In this document: one piece after another, positions 12,338-64,000 of the stretch
Layout of the letters: every line of letters starts with the position of its first letter
Position numbering within the stretch: position 1 is the first letter of the stretch
Position numbers and translations under genes: made by a program
Source of the DNA: Marsupella aquatica
Lineage: Eukaryota; Plantae; Marchantiophyta
DNA length: 64,000 nucleotides
Assembly: GCA_973895155.1 (NCBI GenBank)
Contig: OZ316891.1
Span: 124,001 to 188,000, forward strand
Reading direction: 5' to 3'
The notes under the pieces: generated by a model
The model's input: only the letters and a program-made list of their open reading frames with translations
What the model was told of the DNA's origin: nothing
The model's database searches: none

Positions 12338-12340
12338 TAG

Positions 12341-15442: not shown

Positions 15443-15452
15443 AAAAATCTCA

Positions 15453-17320: not shown

Positions 17321-17409
17321 TAGCCCTCTCCTCAAGCGGCGCCGTGCCCTCACAAGCCTTTCTGAAGTCTTCCACCAGAACTAAATCGCCTTTGAAATGC
17401 ACATTGGTT

Positions 17410-23548: not shown

Positions 23549-23602
23549 AACTCCACAATGAAGATTATGTTGAGATGGATATATTGAGATTGAGATCTCT
23601 TC

Positions 23603-34734: not shown

Positions 34735-35457
34735 TCAGCCTGTTGGTGCTGATCCACTTGTTTTGTTGCTGGCGCTGGAGGTGTCATCCAGCAATAGCCA
34801 AGTCAAGTGGTCTCTCGCAGGGGTCTGCAAATGAGGGTCAATCGTATGGAGGTGGCAATACAAAAACCACCTATCAACCCCGTGTGCAGAGTGGGAATAA
34901 ATTTGGCGGTCACATGCATACCCTTCTGCCTGAAGGGCTAGTAAACACTCATGGTGCCAGGCTGTGGGACATCTGGGACAATGGACCATGTCTATCCAGT
35001 AGTCATCATCAGGCTCCCCACAAGCAGGACAAATATGTAGTGGGCAAAGGGAGTTATCATGGGGCAAGCATGTCAAACAAAAAAAATGAACACAAAACCT
35101 GTCAGGACATTTCCGCAGCTCTGGTTGATCCCCCTCAACAGTGCCGTTTGTGCCACATTGAGCACACTTGCTGATATTAGTGGCACAATCAAAGCAAGTC
35201 CAAGCACCCCGATGGTCCCCCTGGAGCCCAACCCCAGGGCATGCATTTTGTGGTGCATAAGTGGACCAGGAATTGACATGGAATTGTCTCAGGCAGGGGC
35301 CATCACACATGACCAGGTCACCTCCATCATCACAAATGGCACAGACATGAGCGGCTTTCTGATGAATTTGTGCATTGGACCAATGATGATGTCTACTCAT
35401 GGAATCGTGCCTCACCTGTGATCCGCCTCTGTGTGCTGACCGTTTTGGACGAGCCAT
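34735..35457 (-). CDS. Stand-alone EDM2/NSD-like composite PHD-finger protein
   Basis: CAICDDGGDLVMCDGPCLRQFH...WTCFDC...KCAQC...KCPDRFCVHFF...CPLHICPAC...CPRCPTAWHHECL follows the Cys/His spacing of plant EDM2 PHD fingers. Confidence 0.82.
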   Translation of the reverse strand: MARPKRSAHRGGSQVRHDSMSRHHHWSNAQIHQKAAHVCAICDDGGDLVMCDGPCLRQFHVNSWSTYAPQNACPGVGLQGDHRGAWTCFDCATNISKCAQCGTNGTVEGDQPELRKCPDRFCVHFFCLTCLPHDNSLCPLHICPACGEPDDDYWIDMVHCPRCPTAWHHECLLALQAEGYACDRQIYSHSAHGVDRWFLYCHLHTIDPHLQTPARDHLTWLLLDDTSSASNKTSGSAPTG

Positions 35458-37789
35458 GACTTCTACCCCGATAGAAAACAACACAATATATGGCCAGAGT
35501 CAGTGACGTAGTGAAGCATGCAAAGAATGAGAAACTAAAACTATGAATTAATACCAAAGATTTGAGAAACTGTAATTTCAAGTTCTAAATTCAAGACGGG
35601 TTGTGTGCATGGAGGAAATTTTAAGTTTAGGACTCTGAGATTGTACACAGGCAATTACTGAACGATTTCTGCCATTAAAGGTGGGCAATTGTTGGGCTAG
35701 CATTTTCACACATTAATTTTTATAAATTTTGGGGGCCACGAAAATAAGGGGAACCAGTAGAAGAATTCAAAAGTCCACAGCAGGACATTGCTCAGCACAG
35801 CAAGAAGGCCAGTAGAATACAATCGACACCCCATACATAAAATCCAATCAAATAACCCAAATCCAGTCTACACTTCCATAGTGAAATCCTAGCTTGACCC
35901 TGGCCCCGATCTGAGATTGCTATAGTGATGGGCATGCATAAGAGAGGGAGAGATTTCTATACATACTTGAGGATAAGCAGCACAAACGCTCGACCCTGAG
36001 ACCACCAGTGAAGACAAAGCAATGACAATGTAGAGGGCTCTGAGTGATTATAGACCTCAAGAGTTGACAAAACCCTGGAATGATTTCTTTGTGCCTAGCT
36101 TGGCAAAAGAGAAAGCTCTTGAACGGGTGGGAAAATGATTTGCAAGTGCCACAGACAGAGTGTGGCTCATCAGTTCTGTGGCTCATTAGTTGTTCGTGGA
36201 GGAGTACATTATAGAGTATCACATTTGACTAATGTCCTGTACATTGAATACATACAGTGGCAAAGTAGTCAATGGAAGAGTGACCTGCTCCCTTTGCGTT
36301 CTTCCTGTTGCCGAAATATGAATGTAGAGGTAGAATTGCATGCAGGAAAATTTGAAGTTTAGGGCTATGACATCCATGCTTTGTGCAACCTCTAATCCGA
36401 AAGCCTCCAAAGACACAAGTGAAGCATGTAGGCGCGCGTAATAACTTCTAATTTAGTCATTGACAGTACAAGAGTATACTCTAAAATCTGCGATTCTGAA
36501 AGTACAAGCATTGCAAGCGCGCAGGTCTGAAAAGTTGTTGCAAGACACAAATAAGCACTAAGCGACTAAGGACAGGACCGTTGAGTTGAAATCACAGCTC
36601 AGCAAAGGCAAAGAAAAACCCCCCGCACCCCACCTTAGTTCTGCACAACACTTCTGCACACTAGAATACTAGTGTATAAGATTAGAGCAATTCAAGCCGA
36701 AGCAGAATGAAAGTGCCAACAATATACTGTGATCCCATCTACATTTCCATAGTGAAATCCAAGTTCGACGCCGACCCCGACATGAGATTGCTATAGTGAT
36801 GGGCATGCATAAGAGAGGGAGAGATGATGACACGTACTTGAGGATCGCGAGAGAGAGAAATTTGCAACAGAGAGTGGACACAATGGAAGAGCGAGACACG
36901 ATGGAAGAGCGAGACCGAGAGAGAGGGCGAGAGAGAGTGAGGTGAGAATTCAGCAAGAGAGGTCTCGAATAGGGACAACCTTCTATATATGAACCATAGT
37001 TTTTGCTGTCATTAATTTTCCAGAGTTAAGATGAACAAACAGAGTACAAACAGAGCACAATGAAGCACCACAGTGCGTCGCACGGGACCTCTCACCTCTG
37101 CCTGAACACCAGCCGCACCCAACACCACACCAGAGATCAGTGGTCTTGAAAACAAGTTGACACCCTAAACCTGGCACTTCCAATGTCGCCCGCTCCAATG
37201 TCGCAGCGCATTTTTGTTCTAGCTCGTTCTCCTCTTGACCGAAGAACAACCCAACAAGCAAATGGCGGAAGATGGACGCACTTAGCACCTGGGTGAATGT
37301 GGTCACGTTGCGCTTCAAGTGTGGCCCTAAACCCTTCCTCCTCCCTTCAATCACAGAGAGTCTTCGACCGCAAGAGCAAGAAGCACTTCCTCTCCTCTCA
37401 TCTCCCAATGCTATGCAAGGCAAAGAGGTAAAGACTTACAAAGCTAATGGAGGAAGATGGACCCCCGCACCACGAACTTGGCGTCCGACCCTAAAATTTC
37501 CCGCAATGCCCCCGCAATGCCTTCAGGGAGCACTCGCAAACGCACCCAGCACCCGATTGAATGTGGTCAGGTCGCTTCAAGTGTGGTGTCAAACCCTTCC
37601 TCCTCCCTGAAATCACAGAGAGCCCGACTCACTGCACACTAAGAATCCCATTGTTTCTCCATAAACCTTCGTTCCCTCCTTGATTGATCGACTATCGATC
37701 GCCCCTCTCAATGAGTCGCCTCATTCGCTCCACCTCCCCTCCCCTTTATAAACCCTCTTTGCAGACGAAGACCCTACATTTGCTCCCGC

Positions 37790-37923: not shown

Positions 37924-38775
37924 TCTACTATTTGAAGCTTTCTCACATAAAAAGCTTGAATGTTTGGCAATTGGTGAGTAGCACTCACTCACATAAGAAC
38001 CCTAAACTAAGACAATCAGCTTAGATAGTGGACCTGCCATTTTCCTTATGATGGGATGTTGTAATTAAGTGGTATCCCCCATCCAACTTCAAAGGTGCAT
38101 GGACAACCTTGAACCATGAACAATGTCCCTTGCACCTTGAAGAATGAGTGATTGAAAAGAGTAGGTAAAGTCAACATCGCAAAGGAGTCGCAACAAATGA
38201 GTGGAAACTTTGTGGAAGTGATACTTAAGACATATGTAGTGATAACACCCTAAACTTCCATAACCTTGTCACAATAGTCAATAGTGGTTTGGTAAAAAAT
38301 AGGGGGTATTTCTACTAGTGCCAAATCCAAGAGGGTTGTTTGGATTTGGACCATCCAAATCCAAGTGGGTTGTTTGGATTCGGACCATCCGAATCCAAGT
38401 GGCTTGATTGGATTCAGATGGTCCGAATCTAAGAGGGTTGTTTGGATTCGGACCATCCGAATCCAAGTGGGCTTCTTGTATTAGATTCGGATGGTCCAAA
38501 TCCAACAGGCTTGATTGGATTCGGATGGTCCAAATCCAAGAGCCCTCAATCTCACTTTGACAGTGATTTCTTAAAACAAATTTCATGGATTTGAAGTCCA
38601 ATATGAATTTTCACTCTCCAATGCAGAGAGTGATCTGGTGAATACAACTCTTGCCATTTCAGAGGCAGACTGCGACGATGGGCTCATTTTGGAGGACCGT
38701 GATCCAGGATTTCGGTGAGGACTTGAGTTCTCGCGAGTAAACTTCCGCCTGAATTCATTTAACATTTAGGATCCA

Positions 38776-41700
38776 GTGTTATGTGTCAAGATCAAGACAG
38801 GCAACAACCAAACATTGGTCATCGGACCCGTGGTCTCTGTGGGAATGATAGGAAGAGGAATGAATTCTATCATTGTAGAGGTGTCGGACACGATGAGGTG
38901 GGCAAAGTTGCAACTTCCGTCGAAGGCTTTCTCGGCCGAGTTCAATGTGGATGGTATGCAAGTGGGGAATTAAGTGTGTTGTTGATGGGATTCTTTCCAA
39001 AATCCTACACAAAGGAGAAGATTATTGGAGGACTGAAGGGAATGCTTCCTTTGGACATTTTTTATGGGTTTCTTTATTTGAAACTCAACATTGTAAACAA
39101 CCCATCAAAGTTCTCTCTTCCATCCACATGGACTCTTAACAATTTGCTTGAGAAAGCAGGTCTAGTGTCACCAGACTCAAATGTTTGGATCACCAAGGCA
39201 CTAGCCTTTGCACACACGCTTGACCTGGAAAAAGCAAATCTATGGGTAGAGTCTTTGGTGAAGTTGAGGAAAAGTACACAACCACAGAACATAATTGAGT
39301 CTACGCCAGCCAAAAGAACTCCAGCAACTACGATGGAGACAACACAAACTACTGCAGCAACAACCATGGATAGAGCGGCAGGGAAGCGAAAGCAGAGGGA
39401 GAAGAAGCTTCCGGTTGAGAAACCTACTTCAGTTGAGAAGAAGATCACGGCTCCAGCCAAGAAGAAGTCAAGGGAGAAGAAGAAACAAAAAACCGACACC
39501 GGAGTTGTGAATTCAACTCCTGTAGATTTTTCATTACATGCTGAAGATGAGGGTGATAGGCCACATGCTCCAGAGGAGAAAGACGTCTTAGAAGGGAATG
39601 AAGTTCTTCAACAAATGGAGCAGTACTATACTTTTGGGATAAACGAAATTTTTCTGATCCCAGTTGAAAGTATTTTTGCCGCACCAGCGAGACTATGCTA
39701 TCGGATGATGAATTTTGATCATGTGCAAGACATTGCTGATTCCATGATCAAAACACCTGGGCATGAGCCACATGTCGCTGATTTGATTCCTTTTAACGTC
39801 AAGCGAAGAAAGGTACTCCATTTTGAGAATACGGAGTCGGACCGGAAGGATTTTTTGGCCGGAGTGAAAAAGGGCGAGGTCCAATTTCTAGCCGTTAGTG
39901 GTCAGCACTCTGCGAGAGCTGCGAGATGGATTCGTGATTGGGCAACGAAGGATGCCAAGCTCACCCAGTTGGCCAAGAAGTTAGAATTCAGGAAATCCAT
40001 AATATTGTCTGATCGCACACCGTCTTCAATTCTTGTTGAGCACTCCATGAGATCGAACGCCATCAATAGCACGATGGTGTTTCAGTCTTGCTTTAAAGAT
40101 ACAGTTGTCCATGCGAGGCGGCAGTTTGTTGAATGTGGAAATCCAGACAAACCAAAACATGGCGACAACAAAACAAATGCTCAAGACAACCAAAAATTTC
40201 AGGTAAGAAATGTGATTACTTTGTATGCATTTCTCTACCATAGAGAGTAATTCTATTTTGGATTCGGATGGTCTCAGTCCGACACGATTTGTCAAAGAGT
40301 ATTGGAACTTTTGGAATGTTTAGTACGAGTTTTGTTTTTGATTGAGACCATCCGAATCCAAAACTATTATCGCACATTAGAATCCTTTTTTTCCAACCCT
40401 TGAGTTGGGGATAACTGACTAGCTTTCCTTTTGGATTGTAGGATTGGTTGGCTCTGGCAAGAATGACTATGGGCAGGAAGGACTTGCGAAATGTATACTG
40501 GCTACTTTTTGCGGACAATGATCTTTTTGAGTTGTGGCGGTTAGTCTGTGAGATGTGGTTGCATGGGAAACTTCCTGATGGAGCTGGGATGGAAGGAAAT
40601 AACAAGTCCAAAAAAGCAATTACCATTGCCATGTTTCGTCCCTTTGATGGTGAGTTGATCTCACAGAAAGACATCACAAAAATCCTGACACAAGTGAAGT
40701 CAGGAAAGGCATTGCTGAAGAAAGATGCCACAAATAAATCTGACATACCCTCAATAGAGGAGCTTGCGAAGGATGTGAAAAAAGTGAGGAAGCTCAAGTC
40801 TCTCATTGAAGAGTACTACTTTGGCAAGGATCCAAGGAATTTCCCTTCGGATACCGACTGGAAGAAAGTTGTAGAGGTTCTGCCATTGTTGAGTGTTGAC
40901 GCAGAATTCAAGAGATGCAGAAGAGCGGCTGGTGAAGTTTTTTTGTCAAATCTGTTGAAGCCAAATCATACCAGGGAGAGTGCAATCTTGCCAATAGCTC
41001 TGGTGATGCGCCTTGATGACATTTATTGCCAGAAGTTTGGCGGAGGGACACATTCTCGGAGCCAACCGTGGGTCAGGTTCTTTAGTGACAATCTAATGAA
41101 AATAGTTGATCCACCAGCAATAGAAGAATCATCTCCAACGTGCTCACTTGCCATTGTTGACTTCAGTCGAGATCACCAGAAGCTGTGGATGGAAGCAAAA
41201 GTTTTGGTCTTCTACAATACATTGTGGAGCTACCACAAAATCTTACAATCGTTGTAGCCATAACTGTTCATCCGGGGTCTCTTGCAATGAATGTCCTAAG
41301 CTCACTTCAAAAATTGGGACAAGAGAAATCTCACACGATTCACATTGAGTATGGGAGTTATTCTCGAGAGGATCAACCGCACCCGCTTGATTCATGTTGG
41401 GGAGGCGGAATTGAAGAAGTTATATTCGCAGGAATTTCTTGAGATGAAAATGTCAATTGGAATGATGTTTTCAAACCCAATCACCCAAAGCCAAAATTCT
41501 TTTTTGGTTCAAAAGATACTGATTTTGAGGTCACCAAGATTGACACTGGGAAGGCAAAGGTTGACACAGACGACGTGTCAAAACCCGAAGATCTAAAAAT
41601 GATGCTGACCCCAGAAGAGGCGACCAAGGTTTTGCACATGGCCCCTCGATTTGAGATAGTTGGTGCTCGTGGTGGTTGGGTGAATCCACATGCCAAACCC

Positions 41701-42177
41701 ACGCGGATGATACAGAGGATTATTGAATCCTTGTCAGAAGCTGGAGACTTGATTCTTGATTTTTTCTCGGGTGGTCAAGTGATGAAGACAACATTCTTGG
41801 TGCAACGCGAATGCTTTGTTTATTGTGACTCTCAAGATGAGAGACACTTTGTGGAAGCGTATGCTTCATTCCTTTGTGAGAGGGTCCCCTCAATCAAGGA
41901 AAATTGGGATCCTCGTGGTGGGAGTTCTAGGCATTGGAAACCCACTATTGCGGATGTTTCTGCCAAACATGAATCAGCTGATAATTCTGAAGAAGTGGGC
42001 GCTAAGTCAGTCAAAGATAATGGGGCATCAGAGGTGGCGTATGCAAAGAATTTGGATGACCGTGTAGGTCAAAGTGAAAGCATAGAACCCTACGATGTTG
42101 ATGATAATGTTGGTCTTGCACACGCCCTTCATCAGGTGCAGGTGCCCAAAGTTAGAACTAAGAGAGGCTTCTCTTAG
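38776..42177 (+). pseudogene. ParB/sulfiredoxin-like domain fused to a beta-class N4/N6 DNA-methyltransferase-like domain; intron 40203-40441; probable C-terminal tail at 45471-45682
   Basis: IPVESIFAAP..YRMMNFDHVQDIADSM..QFLAVSGQHSARA (ParB-like); SLAIVDFS, EEVIFAG, NPHAKPTRMIQRIIESLSEAGDLILDFFSGG..QRECF (MTase motif X/I order). Frameshift ~41200 and TGA 41440-41442. Confidence 0.65.
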
Positions 42178-42307
42178 TGCTTGACTCCTTGTAGTGGGCA
42201 TGCCACTCACAATCACCTTCTTATCTCCCTCCTCTTGAACAACCAACCTGCAAACACACCTCCAAGTCTTGTGGCTCCACTCCCACAACAAAAATTGTAA
42301 GGAGTTG

Positions 42308-42325
42308 TCCCCGGCAGCGGCGCCA
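42308..42325 (-). other. tRNA-Asp-type PBS of truncated family B element
   Basis: tccccggcagcggcgcca on plus; 20 nt from the LTR end. Confidence 0.8.
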
Positions 42326-42345
42326 AAAACAAAGGTGGGACTCTA

Positions 42346-45300
42346 TGTCAAACACTTGTCAAGGAGCTTAAGCGGCTTTTCTCCCCAAAAGACTACCTAA
42401 TACCTGCTCCATATCATACCAGGGTCACAAAGGATTGACAAAACTTCTGAAATGTGCCTACAATGACTAATCACTCCATACATAAGTAGTTTCAACTCTC
42501 CACTTCTAGAGAGGTAGTCCCCTTGACTACTTTTGTACTCACACCCTTCCCCTCTCCTCTACTCCCAAGGATCAGCAAGGGGGATCTCCGCTCCAAGCTG
42601 TCACCTTAGAGAAGAGTCTCACACAAACACCCAAGAACCAAAGTACTTTCCTCTTCAAGCTTAAGTCTCCTCAAGACCCTCAAAGTAGTGTTACCCCTCA
42701 ACCTTGCCCCCCCTGGCCTTGGTTTGGGTCCACACATCCCCTTTGAGCTCTAGAGAAGGCTCCTCTATCTAAGGACTCTTCCTCTTGTTCTTACTTCTTG
42801 TTAACACCACACACCAAGCAAAATACTTTCCACCCTCAAGCTATAATCCTCTCTAAGTCTCAAAGTAGTGCTCTACCTTAACCTTGCCTCTTGGCCTTGG
42901 TTTTGTACTAGCACATCCCCTTCAAGCTTAGACCAAGATTACATCATAGCATGGACTCTTCTCTTGCTCTCATATGCTTCAAATGCACTCACACTTAATG
43001 CTCACAATGAAGATTGGCAAGTCTCCTTTTATTGCATCACCTTTACAACAAAAGTTCACTACACATTCTCCACACTAAGCATGGACCACCTCTCCCTTCT
43101 CAAGCTTAGCCCTACCTTGACAAGGTAGAGATTCCACTTAAGAGATGAGACTCCCGGTCCCTAACAAAGGAAAACTTTCTCCTTATATACTATTCTCCTT
43201 CCACACCACACCAAGCTTGACCTGGGGTCCAACTACTCCTCCCCCAAGTCCTCCTAACACACAAAGTGCAACTCTATAGTTTGTAGCTCACTCTACAACC
43301 TATTGCTTGACTCCTTCCAAGCCCTGGAATATGCCACACATGAGTTGCATGCTTTGACCTCCAAACCTGATCTCACTTATGGTCCTCCTCACCAGCTTCC
43401 CAACCCACTTGAAAGCTCGCAAAAAGAGTGAGTGAGTCTCAAGTTGTGTCATGTCAAAGTTGGCTCCTTATTTACTAGTTCTTACTTACTACCCCGACCT
43501 ATCAACTTACTTTCCTTACCCTAACGGTCTTGCACCTTTACCCTCTCTTCTCCATGTATCCTAACTTGGGTGACACGGGTGCAAGAAGTGTCGGCCTAAA
43601 AACCTGGTCTTACTTCCCCCATGCCGACTCCCGTTTGCAAGCTATGGGGACCCCCTTGTGGCCTCCGCTAAAAATATATGAGTGATTATTTTTCTGGGTT
43701 TCCACCTTCACCGAGGGGTGCCTTACCTTCCCCTAACTCAGCACAAAAAAATTTGGGCCCCAACGGATACCCCTAGCTAAAGTTATGCCCATTCTCCCAA
43801 GGCTATTTTTGGTGTAAAGCGGGTGTAAGCGGCGACCCGATTACACTTGAACCTTACACGCCCCTTATGGGGATTTCACGTGTCATGAGGGGAGAGTACT
43901 CTCATTATACTCACATTTCTTATGAAGAAGATTGATAAGGACACCAATTTTTGCAGCATTTTCCTCTCTCTTAAATTCAATCTAAAATGGCAGCATTCTC
44001 TATTGGATCGAATGACAGCAGGTCAATTGATAGCTCAGCAGGTCTACAGCACCCTTCTCAGTCCACCTCCATAGCCATCCAGCCTTGCAAGTGATTCAAA
44101 ATCGCAGCAGAATTTTGCAGCAGCCATAGCCCACCAATTCGCAGCTTGCAGCACAATAGCACAGTAGCAGATTCGAAGCATAGCAACTGATTCGAAGCAC
44201 AGGAGCAGCATCCATAGCTTGATTCCTTCTCAACAACTAGCTCTATTCCAATCACTTAGCCAAGCAGGTCTCTCTTCTCAATTTCGTAGCTGCCCACCTC
44301 TGCAATTTCACAGCTAGCAGCAGCATCCATCAATTCAGCAGCATCAAGGTAGCAGCCAGCCAATTCTCGTGAGTATCTCATGCCTGATTAATAGCAGCAC
44401 CTCTAATCTATTGTGCCGCTGCCATAGCAGCAAGCAGCCTTCCCAATTCAAAGCCAGCCTCCCTATTCCAATCAGCAGCCATAGCTCACAATTCAATTTC
44501 ACAGTAGCAGCTAGGTCAAGTCCTTCTCAGCAGCAGCTAGCTCAATTCAATCCCGCACCTGCCTATTCAGATCAAGAGTGGCCTATTTTGATGAGCACCA
44601 GCCCTTCAATTAGCCCACCTTGTGCATTCCTGCCCATGTCGTGCTTGCCTGACCTCGTGCTAGTCTGGTCGCAGCCACGTCGACACGTTTTGACACTTAG
44701 AAAAATTTTGTTTTCCTCTCAGGAGAAACAGTTATACTGGCCCCTCTTGAAGGCCATTCCATAATTCACTCAAATGTCCAAACATACTTCTGAGCATATT
44801 TCTGGAATCCTTGGACATAGGACTCACTCCTAAATTTATCAAACTCTCTAAATACTCCATAACGACTTTCCTAAAAATACATAAGTTTGACCATATCTAT
44901 TAAAGCGCATTACTATTCCAAATCTTTGTGTTTCCAAAAAGTAACAAAAGGTGACAAATTATTTCTGAGACAATCCAGGGATATTATGGTCTATACTTAA
45001 CTCAATTCTAACCTCGAACCCACAAAATTTACCCCTTGGCTATTTTCTCCGGGGCCCGCTAGTTGGTTATTTTAATTTCTGTCAAAATACTCACAACTCC
45101 TAGGTTGAGACCCCACTTGACTTCATACTTTTTCAGGGTTCCCTAGGGACCTCCCAACACCCATGGGAGAAATATCAGCCAAAAATAAGATGTCAGGTGT
45201 CGGGTCATTTTCCGGTCCCGACTTAGTCGCCTATCCTAACTAAGGGTGGAACATTTATTGCCTACCAAAATCACATTACTTATCCCTTTACATTTGCTTA

Positions 45301-45470
45301 GAACAACACATTTTCTCCCTTCCATGATTTCCTACTAGCCTTTCCTAGTGACTTAGGGTTGTAAACCCTAAGTACTTTGCTAACACTACAACAACTTTCT
45401 TACTATTCCTTGTACAAACAACAAAAAAATTGACAAGTTCCTTGCATACCCTATATTGAGCCGGTCCACA
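42346..45470 (-). mobile_element. Family B 5' LTR (3.1 kb) with PBS and a short leader remnant (~42180-42345)
   Basis: TG...CA ends match solo LTR 51228-53221 in inverted orientation; no second LTR or TSD seen. Confidence 0.8.
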
Positions 45471-45917
45471 GTGGGCCAAATAGAGGCCAAGAAGTTTCAT
45501 TGGATGCTGCTCCATCGATTCTTAACAGGAAGGAGTATAAGAGAGGAGAATTGGGATTGATAACTCCTGTTTGGACGTCACTTTATTGGGTAGAACAAAG
45601 TACTTCAGATGTCAATTTTGAAATCCAAGAGGAGCTGGGTGTTGACATTATTGATGAATACGGATCTCTTTTTTCAGACTGAGATCAAACCGTCTGACTT
45701 TCCATTTTTTCATACCAATCTAAAATACTTCTCGGTCTCACAGAATGCGGTCAGCAATTAGAGCCTCGATATCCACCTACGCTCTTTGGGGCTTCTAAAA
45801 ATGGTATGTAGGTTTTTTTGTTGTTAGTCATTGTCTTGTATTTTTGGACTGAGACAATCTCAGTCCAAAGTTCAAATTTGGTTTTCTTTCTAAGAGTTGT
45901 ATTTGTTGCCCTTGCAG

Positions 45918-46954
45918 AATTGAGACCTTGTCCCATCAAGCGGAAGTTGCTCATTTTGGATCTTAACAAAATACTTTGGGATTCACTTGAATTCCAAAGC
46001 AAGGGCAAATCCAGAAACATTGTGACCCCAAGTGGAGTGCATTGGGATAGATCAAATGGAACTAGTCGCATGTATACAGAGAGGCCAGGGTTCCATGAGT
46101 TTCTAAAGTTGGTTTTTGACCGGTTTGACGTTGCAATTTGGACATGTGCTGGGATGCCGCGGACAGTGAAAATGTTGAACATGATGTTCACTGTTGAGGA
46201 GCGGTTGAAACTGAAGTTTGTATTCACACAGGTGGAAGCCTTTGACACAGGCATTCAAAGGCATGACATTACAAATGGAAAGGCAAATGTGCTATTGAAG
46301 GATTTTCGGGTGGTATAGAGTGCATTTGGAAATCTATATGATGAAACCAACACACTCCTTGTGGATAACTCCCCCTTGAAGGCATTTGCCAACCCAGACA
46401 TGACCGGACTATTTCCAGTGCCCTACACACATGCCAATCGTGGAGACAATTTTCTTCTAACAATTCTTTGGCCATGTCTTGAGAAACTGTCACATGCAAG
46501 TGACATTCGTTGTTATCTTCTCCTAAACTCTCCAAAGTGGTCTCTATTGCACATTAAGAGAGACAAGGAAAAAAATGAGATTACTTATGATCAACTTAGT
46601 AAGAGATGTGCAGCAAAAATTTGGAAGTCACAGTATAGGCATAGTGTGCTGGACCTCAATAGCAATGAGATTCCTTGGGCTATGAAGCACCGTATATGTA
46701 GCTTACGTCCTGAGGTGGAACTTGACGATGCACTTGTCACCTCACTTGCTAGATCATTTGTAGGACGGGAATATTCAGGTCTGTATAGAGAAAATCCCAT
46801 ACACTTTTTGCGGGAGATTATAGCAGTTAGGAACAACACCACCAAATTTCATCTCCCTGAAGATAAAGGGAGTTGCAACCGTGACATTAGGGTAGATAGT
46901 AAAGGAGACAAGGGCACGTGCTCAAATAAATATTGTAAGGAGCACTTTGTTTAG
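45918..46954 (+). pseudogene. FCP1/NIF-family HAD phosphatase-like gene, premature TAG at 46316-46318; small upstream exon 45744-45803
   Basis: KLLILDLNKIL, RPGFHEFLKLVFDRFDVAIWT, LLKDF..V*, ETNTLLVDNSPLKAFANP; the two ORFs are in frame. Confidence 0.85.
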
Positions 46955-51227: not shown

Positions 51228-53221
51228 TGTGGAATGGCTCAAGGGAGGCTTGAGTAGGAAATGCGTCAGTTTTTTGCTTTCAAGGAGTAGTAATTACATA
51301 GTTTAGTGATTAGCGGAGTTGTTAGGTTTAAGGTAACTTAATAACTAGGGAAGTAGAGTAGGGAAATAAATTGAGGGAGAGGACATGTTTCTCTAAGAAG
51401 TATCAAGAGTTGAGTAAGTTATTTGGTAAGGGCGGAAAAAAGTTACGGTAGTCGGCAAGTCGGGCCGAAGGCATGACCGATACTTTTGAGTGATAAGTTT
51501 TGCTAAGACTCACCCTATAGGTGCTAGGTAGTCCCTAGACCACACATAAAAGTCACAAAGTCAAGTGGGGTCTTAACCTAGGAGTTGCAAGTATTTTGGC
51601 AAAACTTAAAGTTACCAAATAGCGGGTCTCGGGAAAAATAGCTGATGGGAAAAGGTAGGGGTTCCAAGTTGCAAAATAGGTTAAATATGGTCCACTCTAT
51701 CCCTGGAAACTTGTGGGAGAACTTGGTTACCTTTGGTTACTTTTTGGGAGCATCTCAAAGTTGAGAAGAATTTTGGAAAACATAAGAATTAACCCTCTTT
51801 ACCTAATTTTAGAAAATTGGTTATAGGGTTTTGTTTAGATCTTAGTAAACCAGGACATAGCCCTATGTCAAGAAAATCTATGGATCTACTCAAAAGTCCT
51901 TTTGGCCTTATGGGTGATTTTTGGCGGTGGGTACAATATGGGCCGGGGAATTATAGTTTTTCCCAAATAACGAAATCCGACTAAGTGTAAAAATGCTTCG
52001 ACGAAGCTACCACAAGGCAAGAATAAGTCAAGCACAAGGGCGGCTAGGAGATGGTTGAATAGACCAGGCAATCACAAGGTGAAGGGGCTTGAGTGGGAGT
52101 GGTAGTTAGTTGGACTTTTGTTGTAGTGTGACTTTGGTAGTTAGTAGGACTTTGGTGATTGGACCTTGGTCCTTGGTCCTTGGTCCTTGGTGGGCTACCT
52201 TGGTCCTTGGTGGGCTACTTTGGTCCTTGGTCCTCTACCTTGGTCCTTGGTCCTTGGTCCTTGGTTCTTGGTGGGCTACTTTGGTCCTTGGTCCTCTACC
52301 TTGGTCCTTGGTCCTCTACTTTGGTCCTTGGTCCTTGGTCCTTGGTGGGCTACCTTGGTGTGGTGTGGAAGGAGAATAGTATATAAGGAGAAAGTTTTCA
52401 TTTGTTAGGGACCGGGAGTCTCATCTCTTAAGTGGAATCTCTACCTTGTCAAGGTAGGGCTAAGCTTGAGAAGGGAGAGGTGGTCCATGCTTAGTGTGGA
52501 GAATGTGTAGTGAACTTTTGTTGTAAAGGTGATGCAATAAAAGGAGACTTGCCAATCTTCATTGTGACCATTAAGTGTGAGTGCATTTGAAGCATATGAG
52601 AGCAAGAGAAGAGTCCATGCTATGAGGTAATCTTGGTCTAAGCTTGAAGGGGATGTGCCAGTACAAAACCAAGGCCAAGAGGCAAGGTTAAGGTAGAGCA
52701 CTACTTTGAGACTTAGAGAGGATTATAGCTTGAGGGTGGAAAGTATTTTGCTTGGTGTATGGTGTTAACAAGAAGTAAGAACAAGAGGAAGAGTCCTTAG
52801 ATAGAGGAGCCTTCTCTAGAGCTCAAAGGGGATGTGTGGACCCAAACCAAGGCCAGGGGGCAAGGTTGAGGGGTAACACTACTTTGAGGGTCTTGAGGAG
52901 ACTTAAGCTTGAAGAGGAAAGTACTTTGGTTCTTGGGTGTTTGTGTGAGACTCTTCTCTAAGGTGACAGCTTGGAGCGGAGATCCCCCTTGCTGATCCTT
53001 GGGAGTAGAGGAGAGGGGAAGGGTGTGAGTACAAAAGTAGTCAAGGGGACTACCTCTCTAGAAGTGGAGAGTTGAAACTACTTATGTATGGAGTGATTAG
53101 TCATTGTAGGCACATTTCAGAAGTTTTGTCAATCCTTTGTGACCCTGGTATGATATGGAGCAAGTATTAGGTAGTCTTTTGGGGAGAAAAGCCGCTTAAG
53201 CTCCTTGACAAGTGTTTGACA
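51228..53221 (+). mobile_element. Family B solo LTR
   Basis: TGTGG...TGACA flanked by 5-bp TSD CACAA (51223-51227, 53222-53226). Confidence 0.92.
52163..52358 (+). repeat. (CCTTGGT)n minisatellite just upstream of a TATA-like box in solo LTR B
   Basis: Many CCTTGGT units mixed with GGGCTA/CCTCTA, then gtatataagg at ~52379. Confidence 0.9.
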
Positions 53222-54396: not shown

Positions 54397-57300
54397 TGTA
54401 AGTAGTGGGTAATTCCAAAAGCATGAAGAAACTGAAATTTTTTAAATTTTTTACGGTGTTTAGACTGCAATTATTGCTAACTGTAACTAAAACAGCATTC
54501 AAAGTTACTAAGTTCCTAAGTTACGAGTAAACTCAGTTTACGAGTTTACTAGTTCACTTCTTTACGAGTTACACCTTAAGATTTGGCGACTCTGTGATCG
54601 TGACATCTTACAACTAGTTCAACGGGACTCCACAACGGATGAAGAGCTCACCTTGAAAGGGAAGGAATGCAAGACATAGGCGCTCATTACTGACTTCTCT
54701 TCCACCTTACCTCTCAAACTCTGCCCAGCTTCAACCGGTATTTCAGAGATGTCAAATGGAGACTTCGACCCTTCTATTCCAGGATGATGAATAGTGATGA
54801 GTTTCTGCATCACTATCCCCAAGTATATGCTGCCACCTGCAACAACTATGATGTACTAGGGATATACAGAGAAGCTCTTCGTATAGATTCCTGTTATTTG
54901 ATGAAGCGAATGCCTTTGATGTATCCTGAGAGACAACTAAGGTGCCTACCCTACTCTAGAGGATCACCACGTCAGACTGAGCTGATGGAGGTAACACAGA
55001 ATTGGACTGTCACCTACGTGGAGCTGCTCGAACCCGATGATATTCGACAACAAGCTTGAAGGAGACTATCTTTTTAGCTAGTATTGAAAAGTATAGTACT
55101 TTTACCAATTTTTCTAAATGTGTTGTAGAGCTTTAAAAGCTATGAGACTTCTTTAGGCTGTAGTCTGTACCTAGGAAACCCTGCTGGAAAAATTTCAGAG
55201 TTTTCCGAACCAGGAGTAGAAAGTTAAAAATAGTTGAATCTACTCAATTTTTAGTATACCGAAATTAAGAGTTTAAGAGTTTAAGTTTTTACGTTTTTAA
55301 GAGTTTAAGTTTTTAAGAGTTTAAGAGTTCATACTTAGCCATTTTTTCCGGCTTTCCACTTATTGAATCGTCGTTTTGACTTTTTGAGGGTTATGAAGAG
55401 GCATGTCTCTTCGACCCTGTGACCTCTTATTCTGTAGTTCATCACTATTTATACCTCTTCCCCTAGTGTAGAGAGATGGTTAAGTTCTGCATTTTTGCCT
55501 CCCTTTTGTTAAGTCTATTGATTCTGAACCTACGAGTTCTAAATCAGACTTAATAATTGGAGAGACTTACCTCCTTCTTGTATTTTGGAACCCAAATACT
55601 TGAAGTAAAACCTCAGTTATGAATCTCGTGAATTATAATGTCAGATTCCGCTTTGGTGACACATTGTAATCTCACAAGTTCTTAGAGTTAACTCATTGAG
55701 TTTAAGTTACATTGGAAATGATGTTTTCACCTTCATGTTGCTTAGTACCATCTAAATGCTGAAGTATTTATCCTTTTAGATCTTGACTAAGTATCACTTA
55801 GGAAGAAAGGTCAAGACATGTTGCCGGCATTTTAAAAGGATACTCTAGTATGCAGTTTAGATCTGAAAAGCCGTGTGGATTTGGATTCCCTTTAAAGTCA
55901 TTCCATTATTACTTATGTCTAAGGAGTAACCTTGGTCTATTCCAGACTCCCTTAAGCATACTCTGAGAGATTTTTCCTTGTGTTTTGTTAATTGCAATCT
56001 TTTGCTTAATTGAAGGTTATCTGATGTTGAGTTATCATCAAAAACTACTCACCGCTGTGGAGCGATCTTCAAAGTACCTGATTAAAGTAGTCAAGATTGA
56101 TTACTATGTGTGACACAAGAGCTTAAAGCTTTGTTTTTAGTTTATTACATCAAACCAACCCCATCTTGTTCTTAAAGGGAACGAATACCGAGTTTGGAGA
56201 CTTTAAAATGTGATTTTTGGTTCTCTATGGCAAACTACATGAGATTTTTTGGCGCCGCTGCCGGGGAACAGATTCAGGAATGGTTTGACATTAGGCAGTG
56301 AATGACCAAATTAGAAGCCTTGGATTTTAAGAGAGATTTTGAGGCCAGGGAGAAAGAGAGTAACCATTGTAAGTGGAGTTAGGCCAATTCCATTTAGGAG
56401 GAAGTTATCTCTACTCTGATTTTAACTCTATTATAACCAAGGGAGAAAGATGAATGGATATAGGAGGGAAGGCCATTCCTCTTATAGAAAGGACATCTTT
56501 CTCAAGACTTCATTGTTTATCTCTTGGAGAAGGGGTAATATGATATGCAGGCAGTGGATGTCAAATTTCAGAATTGAATTGATTGAGAAATTACAGAAAG
56601 AAATATTCCTTATGGATACATATGAAGAATGGTCAATTCAAGTTTTGGAAGCTCGACCTTACACTTTCACAGATGCACCAGCTGCATTTGCAGAGGTAAT
56701 TCGAGAAGGAGTTCTCCTTGTTATGAGAGGAAGGAGAAAAATGAAGGCTAAGAAGAAGAGGCTTAAAAGTGCTTAAAAAGCAATGCTTTGGAATTAAGAA
56801 AGGAGATTGAGTAAAGTCTCCATATGATTGTTAGGAGGACTTTAATTATAGCATGACTTCCTAAGTTGTGGTAGGAAGAAGCTACTTTTAGAGGAGGGAT
56901 TAAGTCTGATTTAATTAAATCAAGAGAGCTGGTAGACTTTAACTTACCATAATTGTAGAGAAGAAAGATAGGAAATTAAGAGACAGTTCACTTTGGTCAA
57001 TTAAATCTATAGTATAGGAAGAGTATGAACTTCTTACATTATGAGAAGTCGACTTAGATAAAAGTGCAACCAATTTGATAGACTGTTAGGAAAATTAGGC
57101 GGCAAAAGCCATAGATAAATAGTTGGAGATTTTATTTATTTTTTAGAATATCTTATGCCATCTTGCACAATAGATATGCGCAAACTTTGGTGTTAAGTGT
57201 GAGATGTAGTATGGAGTTCATAATTGGCTATCTATTACTTGGTGGGAACGAGTAAATCTACATTTGGTTATATTAAGGCTAAATGGAAGAATTACAAGAG

Positions 57301-58065
57301 AGGAATATATAGTGATTTCTATACAAGACTTAGCTAGTACATTGATGCAAAGACAAAATCGGAGGCACAGATAAAGTAGGTTAGCTAAAGCAGTGAGAAA
57401 TCTGAAGTGGAAAGGGTACTTTGCTACTAAGGACTCGCCGAGATACGAGGGGATAAGGCATTGCGGGTTAACCCTTACGAGTTACGGGTAAGCGTCATGA
57501 CGATTATGACTTTACGAGTTTACAAGTTAAGTGTTTACTAGTTGAAGGGTTACAAGTTGACGGGACACACGGAAGAGACGCACCTCGCCGAGAACTCGAT
57601 GAAACGACACAACGCTTGCGGACACCATATGCAGAGAAGTGTCAACAAAGGGGCATACAAGCCATGGATCGAGCAAACTTGAAAGGGCGTGGATTTGAGA
57701 AATGACGGAACGGTGCGACCATTGAAGCTGCCTCTTGTAAACCAAGGATCTCCAAGAATGCACCCGCACCAACTCTCCTCCAAAAGAAATGTCTTTCAGA
57801 ATGAGGAATGACTGACAAAGGGAAGCGAAATTGGAAGTCACGACGCGAAGAAAAATCAGCAACTATTCAAATCTTCAGACTGATACAAATGTGCAGAGCG
57901 CATTCCTTCAGTCTCTGACAAAGAAAGCTACGAGATGACGACCCTTCAGAGCTCCAAAGAGTTAACCAATATGACTATTCAAATCTTCAGCAAATTGCAA
58001 AGTCCCATTTTCCTGAATTCATGAGGAGAGAGCTACCTTGAGTCAACAATCCTGTGAACCTTGAC
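54397..58065 (+). mobile_element. Family A copy: LTR 54397-56239, PBS 56250-56267, leader; interrupted by family D
   Basis: Near-identical reverse complement of the tandem unit up to ...gaaccttgac. Confidence 0.95.
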
Positions 58066-58234
58066 TGTGGTATGGGTGTCCCTGCAATTTTTTCTGGAAA
58101 CTTGTTTATTTTTAGCATATCACAAGATTTACTTACACTTTAGACACCTTCCGGCCAACATTTACTTGTTCTGGACACTTATAGAAATATTTGACATCTC
58201 CGGCTTTCCTGACGATTCCTAGTGTACTTTGCCC

Positions 58235-58502
58235 GACGCTGTGACCAGCGCCCGTTTCTTTTACTCAAGACGCTGCGGAAGCGTCCAACCTCCTCATGAC
58301 GCTTTTGGCAGTGCCCGACCGCCACCAAGACTCTATGAGGATTTCGACCGACGCTGTGGAAAGCGTCAGCTTCAACACACGACGCTGTGAGCAGCGTCCA
58401 CCCTAGTATTGACGCTGTGAGCAGTGTGAGCAGCGTCCGTTGGTTTTACTTAAGACGCTTCTAGCAGCGTCCAGATTCTCCCGACGCTTCTAGCAGCGTC
58501 CG
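58235..58502. repeat. GACGCT-N6/7-AGCGTC hairpin repeats in LTR D; again at 60250-60390
   Basis: For example gacgctgtgagcagcgtcc, gacgcttctagcagcgtcc, gacgctgcggaagcgtcc. Confidence 0.85.
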
Positions 58503-60670
58503 CTCAACACTTAGTTTTTGAAGTAGATTACTAGTAAAGTAGTATTCTACCACCCTTGTTGAAGTACTTATGCTGTGCTTCTCCCTTGTTTAGTTTTAAG
58601 CTTGGAAAGGCACGACTGTTCTTACCTCCTCCATTTTAGGATTCCAGCACTTATAAGACAGAGTAGAATGCTCATTTGAAGTAGAGAGAAATAGAGTTAA
58701 TACTGTATTCAGAATTGAGTCTTCTGAATAGTTTTCTCCTCCTTCCATTGTAACAAGGCATGCTGTGAGTGTTTTGTATGGAAGTAAAGCTATATTGATT
58801 GAAGTTAAGATTGAATTCAAGAGATTCCTGTGGTGATTGAATTCAGTTGCAGATTTCTGAAACTCGTATTGAATTCACTGCTAGGCTTGCTTGCAGAGTC
58901 GGGATTCGCTAGCCAATTCAAGAATAGTTAATGATAAATGAGAAGTAAATTCTGATTCTCAGAGTAGTTAGTACTGTTGCTTTGATTCTGGAATATGGTT
59001 TAGAGTTTGACTGAATTGCGTATCGCTGATGTCAAACCATGTTGACGGCATTTTAAATCATATCATTCATTTGCAATCAGAAAGCTTCTGCTTCATCAGA
59101 TTGAGAATTCCATTATCATTAACCTTTGTGTTTTGAAGAGTGAGATGGATGAATTATGAGATAGATTTCATGTCTATACTGAGCCCAAATCCTTTCTGAA
59201 GGAGTGGCAGTAGCTTGTAGTCTCTAAATCCTTACTCATTTCTTCTCTAATTCATAAATCAGAAGTTCAGTTACTTTGTTGTTTGTTTATTCGATTTTTT
59301 TATTGAGAAGTGAAGTCAACATAGAGCTCAAGACTCTAAATCACTCGGAGTGATAAAAGTTATACAATTCATTCTGAAATCTGTTCTTAAAGGGATCGAA
59401 ACCCTGGTTTTAGGTGAGGAGAGTCACTTTTGATACTTAGCACTATACGACATCTTTTTGGCGCCGCTGCCGGGGAACGAATTTAAGATTGAATTGACGT
59501 ACAGGCAGTGTATGCCAGAAGGAGCTAGACGGGAGAGGAATTCACGTTCTACTATAATTGTGAAGATGCGTCATCACTCCAGTTAAAAAGATGAAGAGCT
59601 TCCATTTCGAGGTGATGCCGTACTCTATCCAAAGCGCCCCGGAAGCTCTCTTAAGAGTATTGGAAAAATTTGTGGTGCCAAACTTAAGAGAAGAAACCGC
59701 CCTCCCACCAGAAAAGGCCTCACAGAGAGGAGCTGTTGCTCGTCAAGTTGCTTTGGAGATAGTCGAAGACACCAAAGACACTTTGAGTGACAAGTGAAGT
59801 TATTCTAACGTTGCTCGGGACGTATGATTTGTAAAATTGTCCAACCATCCTGGTTCGTGTGACCGATGCCACCTATCCGATCTTTGGGAACATTAAGAAT
59901 TAGGAATTTGAGGAATCGTTATGTTAATTCTTGGGTTCTGAGCCTGAGAGGGAGGAATGGCATACATTGGTTAACTATCACCTGGTGGGAAGATGAAAGT
60001 TTGCATTTAGTAATATTAAGGCTGAATGGTAGGATCACACAGGAGTGATATTTAGTCATTTCCATTCGGGAGTTAGCGGAAAGAATCATGCACCAGGAAT
60101 TGCGTAGAAGATTAGGAAGGAGTTAGACGTCTGATTAGTAGGATGGCCTAGTGTAGCGTACCATGTGGTAAAGAAATTTCAGGGTGAAGGAAGTCGGAGA
60201 TTATGGGGAACGCCCGGTTCCAGTAATCGCCACCGTAAAGGAGATAAGGAAGGACGCCGCGAAGAGCGTCCAATGCGATTCGTCCCAGAAGATTCCGCAA
60301 GTCAGGACGCTTCGAGTAGCGTCCGATCCCAGTGGACGCTGTGAGCAGCGTCCGGTGGAATCTGTGACGAACCAACGTGCGCGACGCTTCTGGTGTGCCT
60401 TTCCGCGTCTCAACCTGAAGGACGCACCAGAGAAAACGAGGTTTTAGAATCTCGGCTGGTCACTGAAGGGAAGTATTAGCTACGGGATAGCAAGGGGGAG
60501 GAATCATGCAAGGGATGTTGAACGACGCTACGGGAAGTCACTTTGAGGAAGCAGGTTCATATCTCCCGGAGTGGGGTGATAACGTCGCACCTAAATGGTG
60601 ACTCCTTGCATAAAGACTCCTGAGGAGCGGGTCTGGTGTCTCAAAATCACCCGTGCTTGGAGAATGAGGG

Positions 60671-63600
60671 ATGTCTGAGGGAGATCCACCGAATAAAAGA
60701 AAACCTACCAAGACCTCCAGTAATTCGGATGCTGCAAAATTAGTAGTGACCCCTCGCACATTGTTACCCGAATTCCAGTCACCAGGAGCACCTGCACCGG
60801 GTAGTGTGTGGAAACAAGTGGGATCTATTCAAGAGGCAAGTGGCTCTTTGGAAAGGCCCACGTCGACCCGACCCCTGTTTGTAAATCTTCGTTCAGGTCC
60901 AAAACTTATTGGTTCTCAAAAGACCAAGCTCCGCCAGCAGACAGTACGTTCGGTGAACCAAATTGACTCTGGTGTGGATAGTACCACTGAGAGGGCCTTA
61001 TCTCATACCGAAGGAAGAAATTTGGGTTTGCCCGAGAATACAGTTGCAGAATCGCTGGCCCAAGATAATTCTGTCGATCTTTCACAATTGGATAATCCAG
61101 AACCACTGAGTGAAGCCGGTGGTTCGTCTTCTAGTGAGACAAGCAGCAGTTCAGGCTTGGGCAGCCCAAACCCATTTGCTACCCGATCAGCTCTTCCTTT
61201 CGTTACCCTCCTAGCTCCAACCACGATGGCTCGAAATAATGTGAGGTACGACCGGTTCTTCGGTACTTCCAAGGAGGATGCAGAGGTGTATTTGAAAGAA
61301 TTTGAAGCTGCAGCTGCATCCAATGGACAGAGTCAAGACGCTGAAAAAGCCAATCTGTTTGGTGGTCTAATGAAAAAGGGTGCTCAGAAATGGTATGACC
61401 GTTTTCCGGACAAGCAGGATTGGGGGAAATTGAAGGCTGCTTTCTTGGCCAAATATAAAGAAGAAGGAGCAGCTGCGCGTGCCTTTGCCCGAATCTCACA
61501 TCTGCACATGAAGAAACATGGGTCTGTGAGGAAATATGCCGACAAATTATTGGATTTGGTAGATCAATATAATCCAGCTACCTCGAAATCTACTATCAAG
61601 GACTGGTTTATTAACGGTTTACCCTCCAGGATTGCTCGTTACGTGAGACGAGAAGGTGGCACCACTTTGGAAGAAGTACAAGAGGCAGCCCAGAAGTACG
61701 TAGACTCGGAGATTTCAGAGAGAAAACGAGTTAAGAAGGACCTGAAGAAAGACAAAAGAAAGAAGAAGAAAACGTCCAGGTCTAAATCTGACTCGGAGAC
61801 GGAATCAAGTGGAAGTAGCACTAGTGAGGAGGACGAGAGTACAAATTCGAGCACTAGTGATAGTTCAAGCTCAAGTTCCGACTCAGAATCCGTTGCTCCT
61901 AAAAAGAAGAAATCCTCTGTAAAAGGGAATAATAAAGTTCCCAACCAGAAGAAGATGGATCGCATGATGGAAGAACTCTCTGGCCAATTGTCCAAGTTGA
62001 ATGTCAATATCGCCGCGGTAAAACCAGTACGAAGGTTGCCTGCTCCCATGAGAATGAACGTATGGTGCACCCGATGCAGTCAGCAGGGCCATTACCCGAA
62101 CGAGTGCCCCACATTACGAACCCCGGTGAATTATGTAGATGGTCAAGAAGAGGCTGAGGAGTATGAGTACGATCCCACGTATACCGTCCAAACAGCACCC
62201 CCTGGACAGTATTTCCCACCACCTCCTGCTTCCAGACCGACTTGGGGACCACCTAAGCCCACTTTCAATAAACCAACGTCAAGACCACCCATGGGACCCC
62301 CGGGAGGATACCCACCACGAGGAATGCCGCGTCAAAAAGGGGCTTGTTGGAATTGTGGCCAACCTGATCATTATTCACCCCAGTGCCCTTATCCCAAACA
62401 GGAGGTGGGGTATACACCTGTCTGTGGGAACTGTGGAAAAGAAGGACACTTACCGGTGGAATGCCCGAATCTGGCTAAGCCTAGGCTGATGGTTCGATTT
62501 GCTCAAGAGCCAGTTAAAGAAGCAAGTCGACCTGAAGCCAAGATTCGGATGGTTTATTCTGAAGAGATGGAGCAATGCAGCTTCATTCAACATATGGATG
62601 TAAATCGGGTGGAATTAAAGCCAGATTCACTTTTTCATCAACCAGTATCCGGGGTGGTGCCTGATGTCTTGGTAAGTCATTTAGTGAAACCTGAAGTAGT
62701 TGGTATGCCGAATGATCGAGTTCAGAATCGGGATAAAGTTCTGACTAATATTTACGCAACTACTCGTTCGAAGAAAAAGGAGACCAAGAAGCACGAGCAT
62801 CAGAAGGTCGCGAAAGCTCCCAAGGATGAAGGGCGCAAGCCATGTAAGGAAGGCCTCGACAAAGAAGACGACCCTGCTTATGACCGATATGACCCAAAAT
62901 ACTTCTTGCCCGACATCTCTTTGGAAGTGAAAGACCATCTGGAAGAGCTAGTTAAGGAGCAAGTGCAATCTCCTAACCCACCAGTAGTAGTCAAAGCTAA
63001 AGAGCCACTGAAAAATCCAGGTTATGATATTGTTGAAGATGTCAAGAATCATCCTGCACATATCACCATTGGGGAATTATTACAGGACAATCCGGTTTAT
63101 AGGCGACAGCTGAGGAGCCTCCTTGCAGGAAAACGGAGGAAGAAGAAGTTACCTTCGGTGGATGTGCTACGAACAGAGTGGGAGGACAAAGGACCGATGG
63201 AAATTGAGGTTCAAATCCAGGGGTGTGTCATTCGGAGAGTTCCTGTGGATGGAGGAGCCAGCGTTAATCTGATTACACAGTCAGCAGCATTTAATTTGGG
63301 TTTCACTAAGTTTGAGCCCACTCCCAAGATTTTGCGCATGGCGGATCAGTCTCGTGTGGTACCCATAGGGAAGCTGACCAGAGTAGAAACTTTGATTGCT
63401 GGTGTCCCTTTTCTGTTGGATTATGTGGTTATTAATCCGGAAATACCATCCAGCTTTCCTGTTTTGTTAGGCCGACCATGGTTGTATAAGGCTCAAGTTC
63501 AGGTTAATTGGCAATCTCAAGAGCTTTCATTTGGGAAGCCTAAGGTGACTGTTAGTTGGGTTCCGGAACCACATTTTGGAGAAACACAAACAGATGATGG

Positions 63601-63724
63601 GTACACCTCGGATTTTTCGACCTCTTCGCTAGTCCTGCAGCCATTGGAATTTGAACTGGAGGAAGTTCGTTACTTGGAAGTTTATCTGTCTGATGCTCCC
63701 ATAAAACCAACTAGGCCCTCCTGA
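60671..63724 (+). CDS. gag: Gag-protease polyprotein: capsid, three CX2CX4HX4C knuckles, aspartic protease
   Basis: CTRCSQQGHYPNEC, CWNCGQPDHYSPQC, CGNCGKEGHLPVEC; VDGGASVNLI...VLLGRPWL. Confidence 0.95.
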   Translation: MSEGDPPNKRKPTKTSSNSDAAKLVVTPRTLLPEFQSPGAPAPGSVWKQVGSIQEASGSLERPTSTRPLFVNLRSGPKLIGSQKTKLRQQTVRSVNQIDSGVDSTTERALSHTEGRNLGLPENTVAESLAQDNSVDLSQLDNPEPLSEAGGSSSSETSSSSGLGSPNPFATRSALPFVTLLAPTTMARNNVRYDRFFGTSKEDAEVYLKEFEAAAASNGQSQDAEKANLFGGLMKKGAQKWYDRFPDKQDWGKLKAAFLAKYKEEGAAARAFARISHLHMKKHGSVRKYADKLLDLVDQYNPATSKSTIKDWFINGLPSRIARYVRREGGTTLEEVQEAAQKYVDSEISERKRVKKDLKKDKRKKKKTSRSKSDSETESSGSSTSEEDESTNSSTSDSSSSSSDSESVAPKKKKSSVKGNNKVPNQKKMDRMMEELSGQLSKLNVNIAAVKPVRRLPAPMRMNVWCTRCSQQGHYPNECPTLRTPVNYVDGQEEAEEYEYDPTYTVQTAPPGQYFPPPPASRPTWGPPKPTFNKPTSRPPMGPPGGYPPRGMPRQKGACWNCGQPDHYSPQCPYPKQEVGYTPVCGNCGKEGHLPVECPNLAKPRLMVRFAQEPVKEASRPEAKIRMVYSEEMEQCSFIQHMDVNRVELKPDSLFHQPVSGVVPDVLVSHLVKPEVVGMPNDRVQNRDKVLTNIYATTRSKKKETKKHEHQKVAKAPKDEGRKPCKEGLDKEDDPAYDRYDPKYFLPDISLEVKDHLEELVKEQVQSPNPPVVVKAKEPLKNPGYDIVEDVKNHPAHITIGELLQDNPVYRRQLRSLLAGKRRKKKLPSVDVLRTEWEDKGPMEIEVQIQGCVIRRVPVDGGASVNLITQSAAFNLGFTKFEPTPKILRMADQSRVVPIGKLTRVETLIAGVPFLLDYVVINPEIPSSFPVLLGRPWLYKAQVQVNWQSQELSFGKPKVTVSWVPEPHFGETQTDDGYTSDFSTSSLVLQPLEFELEEVRYLEVYLSDAPIKPTRPS

Positions 63725-64000
63725 CAATTAACTTCATCATCGGAAGTGGGCCCAGCAGCAGACGAACCTCCTAATACTGAGGCTAATAGGGATTTACACC
63801 ATGATATGGGAGTGTCAGCTACCCTTGAGCCATTTGCACCAGAAGTATCCAAACTTGGACTTCAGCCGGCAAACCTCACGGATGGAATTGTGGATCCAAA
63901 AGCTTGTCAGAAAATCGAAATTGAGCCAGGCAAGTTTTTGAATATTGGTAAGCATATCGAAGGAGAGCATTTTGCAGCAGCAGCAGATTTTGCCAATGAC
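63725..64000 (+). CDS. pol: In-frame continuation after the gag-pro stop (probable start of the RT-containing pol)
   Basis: 92 open codons to the window end; KIEIEPGKFLNIGKHI resembles the pre-RT segment of gypsy Pol. Confidence 0.65.

Follow-up and report, generated by a model that had tools for sequence, protein, structure and literature searches.

Plant retrotransposons separate Gag-protease (Gag-PR) from reverse transcriptase, RNase H and integrase (RT-RH-IN) in various ways, by splicing in Ogre and by a single stop in Retand. A stop followed by CARYYA occurs in the plant LTR element SIRE1, where it serves pol/env-like readthrough; SIRE1 differs from the locus described here in being Ty1/copia and in carrying its stop between pol and the env-like gene. 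Type I readthrough is defined as UAG-CARYYA (PMC3159437, PMC5382211), and adenines 5′ of the stop are frequent there (PMC3159437). Plant assays of the TMV context give 32% readthrough when transient and 6–10% when stable; with UGA or UAA readthrough is lowered yet retained, a change of the +1 C abolishes it, and Trp is inserted at UGA, according to the accessible text of PMC2754532, which also cites RIRE2 as a readthrough candidate. The layout GAG-PROT:s:RT-RH-INT is tabulated for 351 Retand (49%) and 47 Ogre (14%) elements in the accessible part of Neumann 2019 (PMC6317226), which makes a post-protease stop a common arrangement among plant non-chromoviruses. The preliminary description of this locus had called recoding at that position uncommon, which needs correcting: a single stop there is the prevailing Retand layout. 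For the single-stop layout the accessible literature names candidates and no tested mechanism. CARYYA at gag/pol stops is discussed, and absent, in the available portion of a fungal copia paper (PMC3441728).

The window, the whole 64,000-nucleotide stretch analysed here, contains an element whose Gag-protease frame closes at a TGA directly followed by CAATTA (Table 1). An LTR with TG..CA ends, a primer-binding site, Gag with CCHC knuckles and a weakly matching protease are present, as expected of a Ty3/gypsy LTR element. The primer site, found as an identical 18-mer in two related loci (L003 and L005), is presumably of the tRNA-Asp type. The element interrupts the fourth copy of a gag-only family (54397-58065, + strand), whose homology to the other gag-only copies ends at 58065; intact copies continue past TTGAC. 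The window stops short of RT; the order PR-RT-RH-INT is seen in the relatives P0011, L003 and L005. No second RNase H (aRH) was matched by Pfam at E 0.01 in the L005 Pol or in P0011, and no Pfam chromodomain match was obtained in the relatives. Judged by these sequence features, the element is a Ty3/gypsy non-chromovirus of Athila-like character. Its protease region is 52–57% identical to that of L001–L004 over the aligned stretch, and its named relatives belong to two liverworts, Calypogeia fissa and Riccia sorocarpa, which makes a bryophyte host likely.

Table 1. Features of the element and of its Gag-protease/RT linker, in window positions
Feature	Position	Strand	Remark
Candidate target-site duplication TTGAC	58061-58065		3′ copy beyond window
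Likely 5′ LTR, TG...CA, 1387 bp, inserted in gag-only sister element	58066..59452	+	TG at 58066, CA at 59451-59452
Primer-binding-site-like 18-mer	59459..59476	+	after 6-nt T-rich spacer
Gag-protease ORF, 1017 aa from ATG at 60671	60671..63724	+	60668-63724 from stop to stop, 1018 codons
Retrotransposon Gag (capsid) domain PF03732	61382..61621	+	Pfam E 2.7e-06
CCHC zinc knuckles PF13917, PF00098	62057..62389	+	Pfam
Aspartyl protease domain	63203..63484	+	weak Pfam matches below cut-off
Gag-protease/RT linker site TCC TGA CAA TTA	63719-63730		read from sequence
In-frame TGA	63722-63724	+	86 codons past LLGxPW protease motif; in register with TAG of L001-L004, L006
CAATTA, a CARYYA readthrough hexamer	63725..63730	+	directly 3′ of TGA
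Open Pol frame past stop	63725..63967	+	first Met = codon 28; codons 48-79 (63866-63961) match pre-RT segment
Junction	63962..64000	+	7 nt (63962-63968) in both contig sets, then 32 nt off family's main form

Two side observations concern the relatives. Past its integrase, L005 carries a 745-aa sense ORF (2386-4620, + strand) with no Pfam match, an extra 3′ ORF of the lineage. In L003, a Gag N-terminal extension (2349-2957) and the Gag core (2837-5707) lie in different overlapping frames. The extension is fused to the core in P0004 and in the window, and the L003 split is likely a private frameshift.

Reading of the sequence and its ORFs confirmed that TGA-CAATTA closes the 1017-aa gag-pro ORF. 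The preliminary description had further reported 92 open codons past the TGA; the frame does stay open to the end of the window, but only ~81 of the 92 follow the family's main form. Searched with a profile built from the segment ahead of RT in the relatives, the post-stop frame matched at E 7e-4 (hmmsearch), and none of the other five frames fell below E 0.26. The chance of finding CARYYA behind any given stop is ~0.2–0.4%. Within the window, TRACARYYA was seen 9 times against 11.85 expected, and of the 29 ORFs reaching 150 aa one is followed by the hexamer, with ~7% odds of some long ORF having it. The motif by itself is thus weak evidence at this scale, because 15 of the 6444 stop triplets carry CARYYA.

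Comparison with related loci is more informative. A metagenome scan gave six loci (L001–L006), five of which cover the linker, L005 ending ahead of the protease. In all five, an in-frame TAG followed by CARYYA lines up with the window stop, the hexamer being CAATCA in L001 and CAACCA in L002, L003, L004 and L006. The stop lies 135–162 codons past LLGxPW in these loci versus 86 in the window; in gapless register with the window stop, Pro occupies codon −8 in 5/6 sequences and Val codon +8 in 5/5. In L003 and L004 the same frame goes on into RVT_1, and in L006 into the N-terminal part of RT, which accounts for 3/3 loci reaching RT. A single in-frame stop interrupts the linker (two in L006), versus 5–22 in each other frame, and the additional, private TAG of L006 (nt 174) lacks the hexamer, like an ordinary nonsense change. 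A search of viral contigs and prokaryote genomes returned no related locus.

The hexamer is conserved at positions where the encoded protein does not require it. The five loci are 67–78% identical to one another in alignable DNA, and synonymous sites among the related loci are near saturation. The first codon of the hexamer is CAA in 6/6 sequences, although only 51% of the Gln codons of these elements are CAA, and the +6 A is retained in 6/6 across TCA, CCA and TTA, which encode three amino acids. Of the fourfold third positions of the protease, 1/42 are invariant among five sequences, 4/54 among four loci and 0/18 among all six; the five loci do not count as independent trials, because they share a single data set and clade, and these control columns are equally related. 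Variation is confined to the Y positions of CARYYA and to the identity of the stop (TAG or TGA). That synonymous positions of the hexamer are kept across families points to one mechanism. With stop plus CARYYA in 5/5 loci and RT in frame in 3/3, sequence comparison supports well the programmed PR/RT readthrough suggested in the preliminary description, and neither refuting outcome named there, a sense codon in copies of the family or splicing, came up.

The distribution of the stop was also followed in proteins, with 160 stored sequences examined, 92 of them with the protease motif. Most of the 92 are uninformative on the stop, because contig ends and decayed copies are indistinguishable. Seven end exactly at GS(K/R)(E/Q)LK, the residues ahead of the TAG in the loci, only six of them being additional because P0012 clusters with the protein of L001. 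A frameshift at this common end was considered and is excluded by the DNA, in which the TAG is present with RT in the same frame. Nine proteins were flagged as running on into the RT-start motif; one looks spurious, and the NCBI rows are gene models. P0011 (1664 aa, contig of 6113 nt) is clearly a relative without the stop, and P0039 is weak run-on evidence because it has no RVT_1 match and is a gene model. A quick tree was built from 60 protease rows, with 37 of the 92 proteins (P0030 and P0044 included) left out for having too little sequence around the motif. The TAG group forms a clade with support of 100, and the window falls outside it, in a weak group (89) with a clade of run-on proteins. 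As this run-on clade (P0023, P0039) is equally close to the window, not every member of the lineage has the stop; the cassette may have had one origin with losses, or two origins. P0030, a close sister of the window represented by protein only, ends 89 residues past the protease motif. The 81 post-stop codons, used as query, found no protein among 93 candidates.

Copies of the window's own family were compared by aligning to it the contigs of seven of the ten listed sequencing runs (X1, X3, X4, X5, X6, X7 and X8). The deepest contigs covering the site are identical to the window, one from X1 (63527-63968, depth 788) and one from X4 (63629-63781, depth 3541); the window itself may derive from X1. 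One X4 contig, at depth 531, diverges by an in-frame gap of 18 nt shortly before the site and by 28 differing letters, of which 12 are displayed, none within 63722-63730, and 16 are at positions not displayed. Two further X4 contigs match only 63713-63745, the remainder failing the 80% setting, with three differing letters each, one at 63736 by depth sum and two of unseen position. Contigs of X6, X7 and X8 gave no match across 63670-63830, and no contig among those listed for X3 and X5 spans the stop. A sense codon in place of the stop was thus seen in none of the compared contigs of the window's family; sister families may have one here, since most of the X4 contig differences are not displayed.

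The same contigs locate a junction near the window's end. Those of X1, X3 and X4 diverge from the window behind 63968, and other X1 and X4 contigs join before 63962. The RT-start motif seen in L003, L004 and L006 does not occur in the final 11 codons of the window, whose last 45 nt matched nothing notable in the window or the loci. The segment 63962-64000 is likely an internal pol deletion or rearrangement in this copy, and the 7-nt overlap suggests microhomology-mediated deletion. Given the departure of the contigs at 63962-63968 and the missing RT-start motif, RT is probably not next in the window copy, which is probably defective past 63968. The expectation of an in-frame RT beyond the window thus holds for L003, L004 and L006 and is doubtful for this rearranged copy.

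This rearrangement bears on the first of three alternatives, that the TGA of the window's family arose as plain nonsense and was propagated by a non-autonomous subfamily, with CAATTA a product of chance or a Gln-Leu leftover. Besides the rearranged copy, the reading draws on the nearby non-autonomous gag-only sisters, which are 100% identical, on stop-less relatives such as P0011, and on the use of TGA instead of TAG in a sequence outside the TAG clade. It has to accept, at the low per-stop frequency given above, a chance hexamer whose landing in register adds to the improbability, and a Gln-Leu leftover fares little better, as YYA follows only 9/180 other in-frame Gln codons (9/32 when Ser, Pro or Leu comes next). 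The one private nonsense change at hand, at nt 174 of L006, came without such a context. We therefore regard a nonsense origin as very unlikely.

Also very unlikely is that Gag-PR truly ends at the stop and that Pol is translated independently, either from an AUG further down, reached by reinitiation or internal initiation, or from a transcript specific to it. Every sequence does have a Met no more than 39 codons past the stop, and that of the window has G at −3 and +4. The position of the first Met is, however, unshared (codons 28, 12, 3, 39, 25 and 29), with L003 offering only a poor-context Met at codon 39, and the codons between stop and Met are constrained as protein (pS 0.50–1.16 versus pN 0.06–0.29); it is these two observations that make reinitiation unlikely. 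Separate production would also leave unexplained both CARYYA and a Pol in frame with Gag. The third alternative, again very unlikely, is that some transcripts lose the stop by splicing, as in Ogre: in the five relatives the TAG supplies an AG readable as an acceptor, and the window has two 6-of-8 donor-like sites upstream (63503 and 63545), but the linker shows no intron signature, having a single in-frame stop with coding-type conservation on both sides, unlike the non-coding spacer averaging 274 bp, only 19–26% T around the stop, no pyrimidine tract ahead of the TAGs and no AG in the window's TGA, and an intron leaves the invariant +6 A unexplained.

The conserved stop plus CARYYA cassette is probably a programmed leaky stop with tobamovirus-type, low-level readthrough, producing Gag-PR in bulk and Gag-PR-RT-RH-IN rarely. 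Under this model, full-length RNA from the 5′ LTR would be translated and most ribosomes would end at the UGA, freeing the 1017-aa Gag-protease. A small fraction, likely a few percent, would insert an amino acid by near-cognate decoding at UGA and stay in frame to yield Gag-PR-RT-RH-IN. Protease would thereby be supplied at the level of Gag, whose ratio to RT, RNase H and integrase would be fixed with these three enzymes scarce. The hexamer directly behind the stop may be sufficient, with RNA structure seemingly unneeded: no 3′ stimulatory hairpin stands out in any of the 6/6 stretches, where local folding z-scores range from −1.02 to +0.78. The codon before the window's stop is TCC, without the 5′ adenines common at readthrough sites, and the rate of readthrough may be low because of this and the use of UGA.

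Other features of the window are mostly transposon-related. The gag-only, non-autonomous family forms a tandem array at 10470-22303 (− strand), in which three 1868-bp LTRs are common to two 4983-bp units that are 100% identical, reflecting either very recent activity or an assembly duplication; the 284-aa Gag ORF of this family is 76% identical to the Gag of the studied element over 174 aa. The array cuts the upstream end of a 1007-aa ORF with DUF7869 (7405-10428, − strand; E 3e-43). Pieces of a CACTA-type transposase (Transposase_21, DUF4218 and DUF4216) lie at 28799-32565 (− strand), near ORFs with BRCT (33157-33888) and PHD fingers (34735-35499) that are possibly cargo. ORFs at 38763-46954 (+ strand) include a weak N6/N4 DNA methylase match (41443-42177) and a NIF-type phosphatase (45812-46318), and are probably exons of transposon-borne genes; the phosphatase ORF has a single TAG without CARYYA, then 211 more in-frame codons. 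An 870-bp inverted pair, 99% identical (42346-43215 and 52354-53221), forms the LTR pair of a third, related family, for which the same motif of the primer site recurs at 42325 (− strand). Tandem repeats of 66 bp and 34 bp with internal palindromes occur in both orientations at 22434-23555, 24576-24873 and 38287-38550, resembling transposon subterminal repeats.

The CARYYA signal and the single-stop layout are each known already, separately. Their combination in UAG and UGA forms, alongside stop-less sisters, in a lineage without detected aRH, appears to be new. Our literature search found no report of CARYYA at the PR/RT stop of bryophyte elements, and the accessible texts of PMC11963269, PMC5009743, PMC12885004 and PMC13392006 are silent on a readthrough signal between PR and RT; CARYYA in RIRE2-like elements may be covered by Gao 2003, Havecker and Voytas 2003 and Harrell 2002. 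The 9-nt cassette suits existing plant dual-reporter assays, and the UAG, UGA and stop-less sisters form a natural series on the amount of Pol that an element needs. Annotation tools will label such elements broken though they are possibly intact.

Set against described systems, the hexamer most closely recalls the type I tobamovirus site UAG-CAR-YYA, with which the window has in common the hexamer itself and a same-frame downstream Pol (PMC3159437, PMC5382211); local folding showed no 3′ structure. The canonical type I stop is UAG, which the five relatives match; the window differs in its UGA and absent 5′ adenines, and because its stop is UGA it is not filed as canonical type I. Among retrotransposons, Athila, a non-chromovirus of the OTA group, resembles the lineage in the lack of aRH and chromodomain in the relatives, the large LTR and the candidate 5-bp target-site duplication. 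The primer site of the window, if Asp-like as presumed, would agree with Athila and differ from Retand. According to the accessible part of PMC6317226, primer sites are Asp in 72% of Athila elements and Lys or Arg in Retand. Athila is mostly organized as one ORF (50%) or with a stop before the protease (12%), whereas the window's stop follows it (PMC6317226). Ogre has the same Gag-PR / RT-RH-IN split, with a single stop in its minority form (PMC6317226), but usually an intron-spliced spacer and an aRH, and the window linker has no intron-like spacer. Retand (Tat clade; RIRE2, Cinful-1, Tat4-1), like the window lineage, has one in-frame stop between protease and RT; an aRH is present in 98% of Retand elements and was detected in neither the L005 Pol nor P0011, and as the accessible Retand layout table gives no stop context, the likeness is one of layout alone (PMC6317226). 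Tat clades without aRH, reported from Marchantia (PMC10508981, accessible text), are another possible home for the lineage. We tentatively propose, as a possibility we hold with less than even confidence, an undescribed non-seed-plant Ty3/gypsy lineage without aRH in which a tobamovirus-type leaky stop sets the Gag-PR/RT ratio. The CARYYA cassette would have been reached or kept, with UAG and UGA, independently of Retand, and the one-ORF close sisters would mark repeated gain and loss of a six-base translational switch at one site. The finding extends a known pattern and opens no new one.
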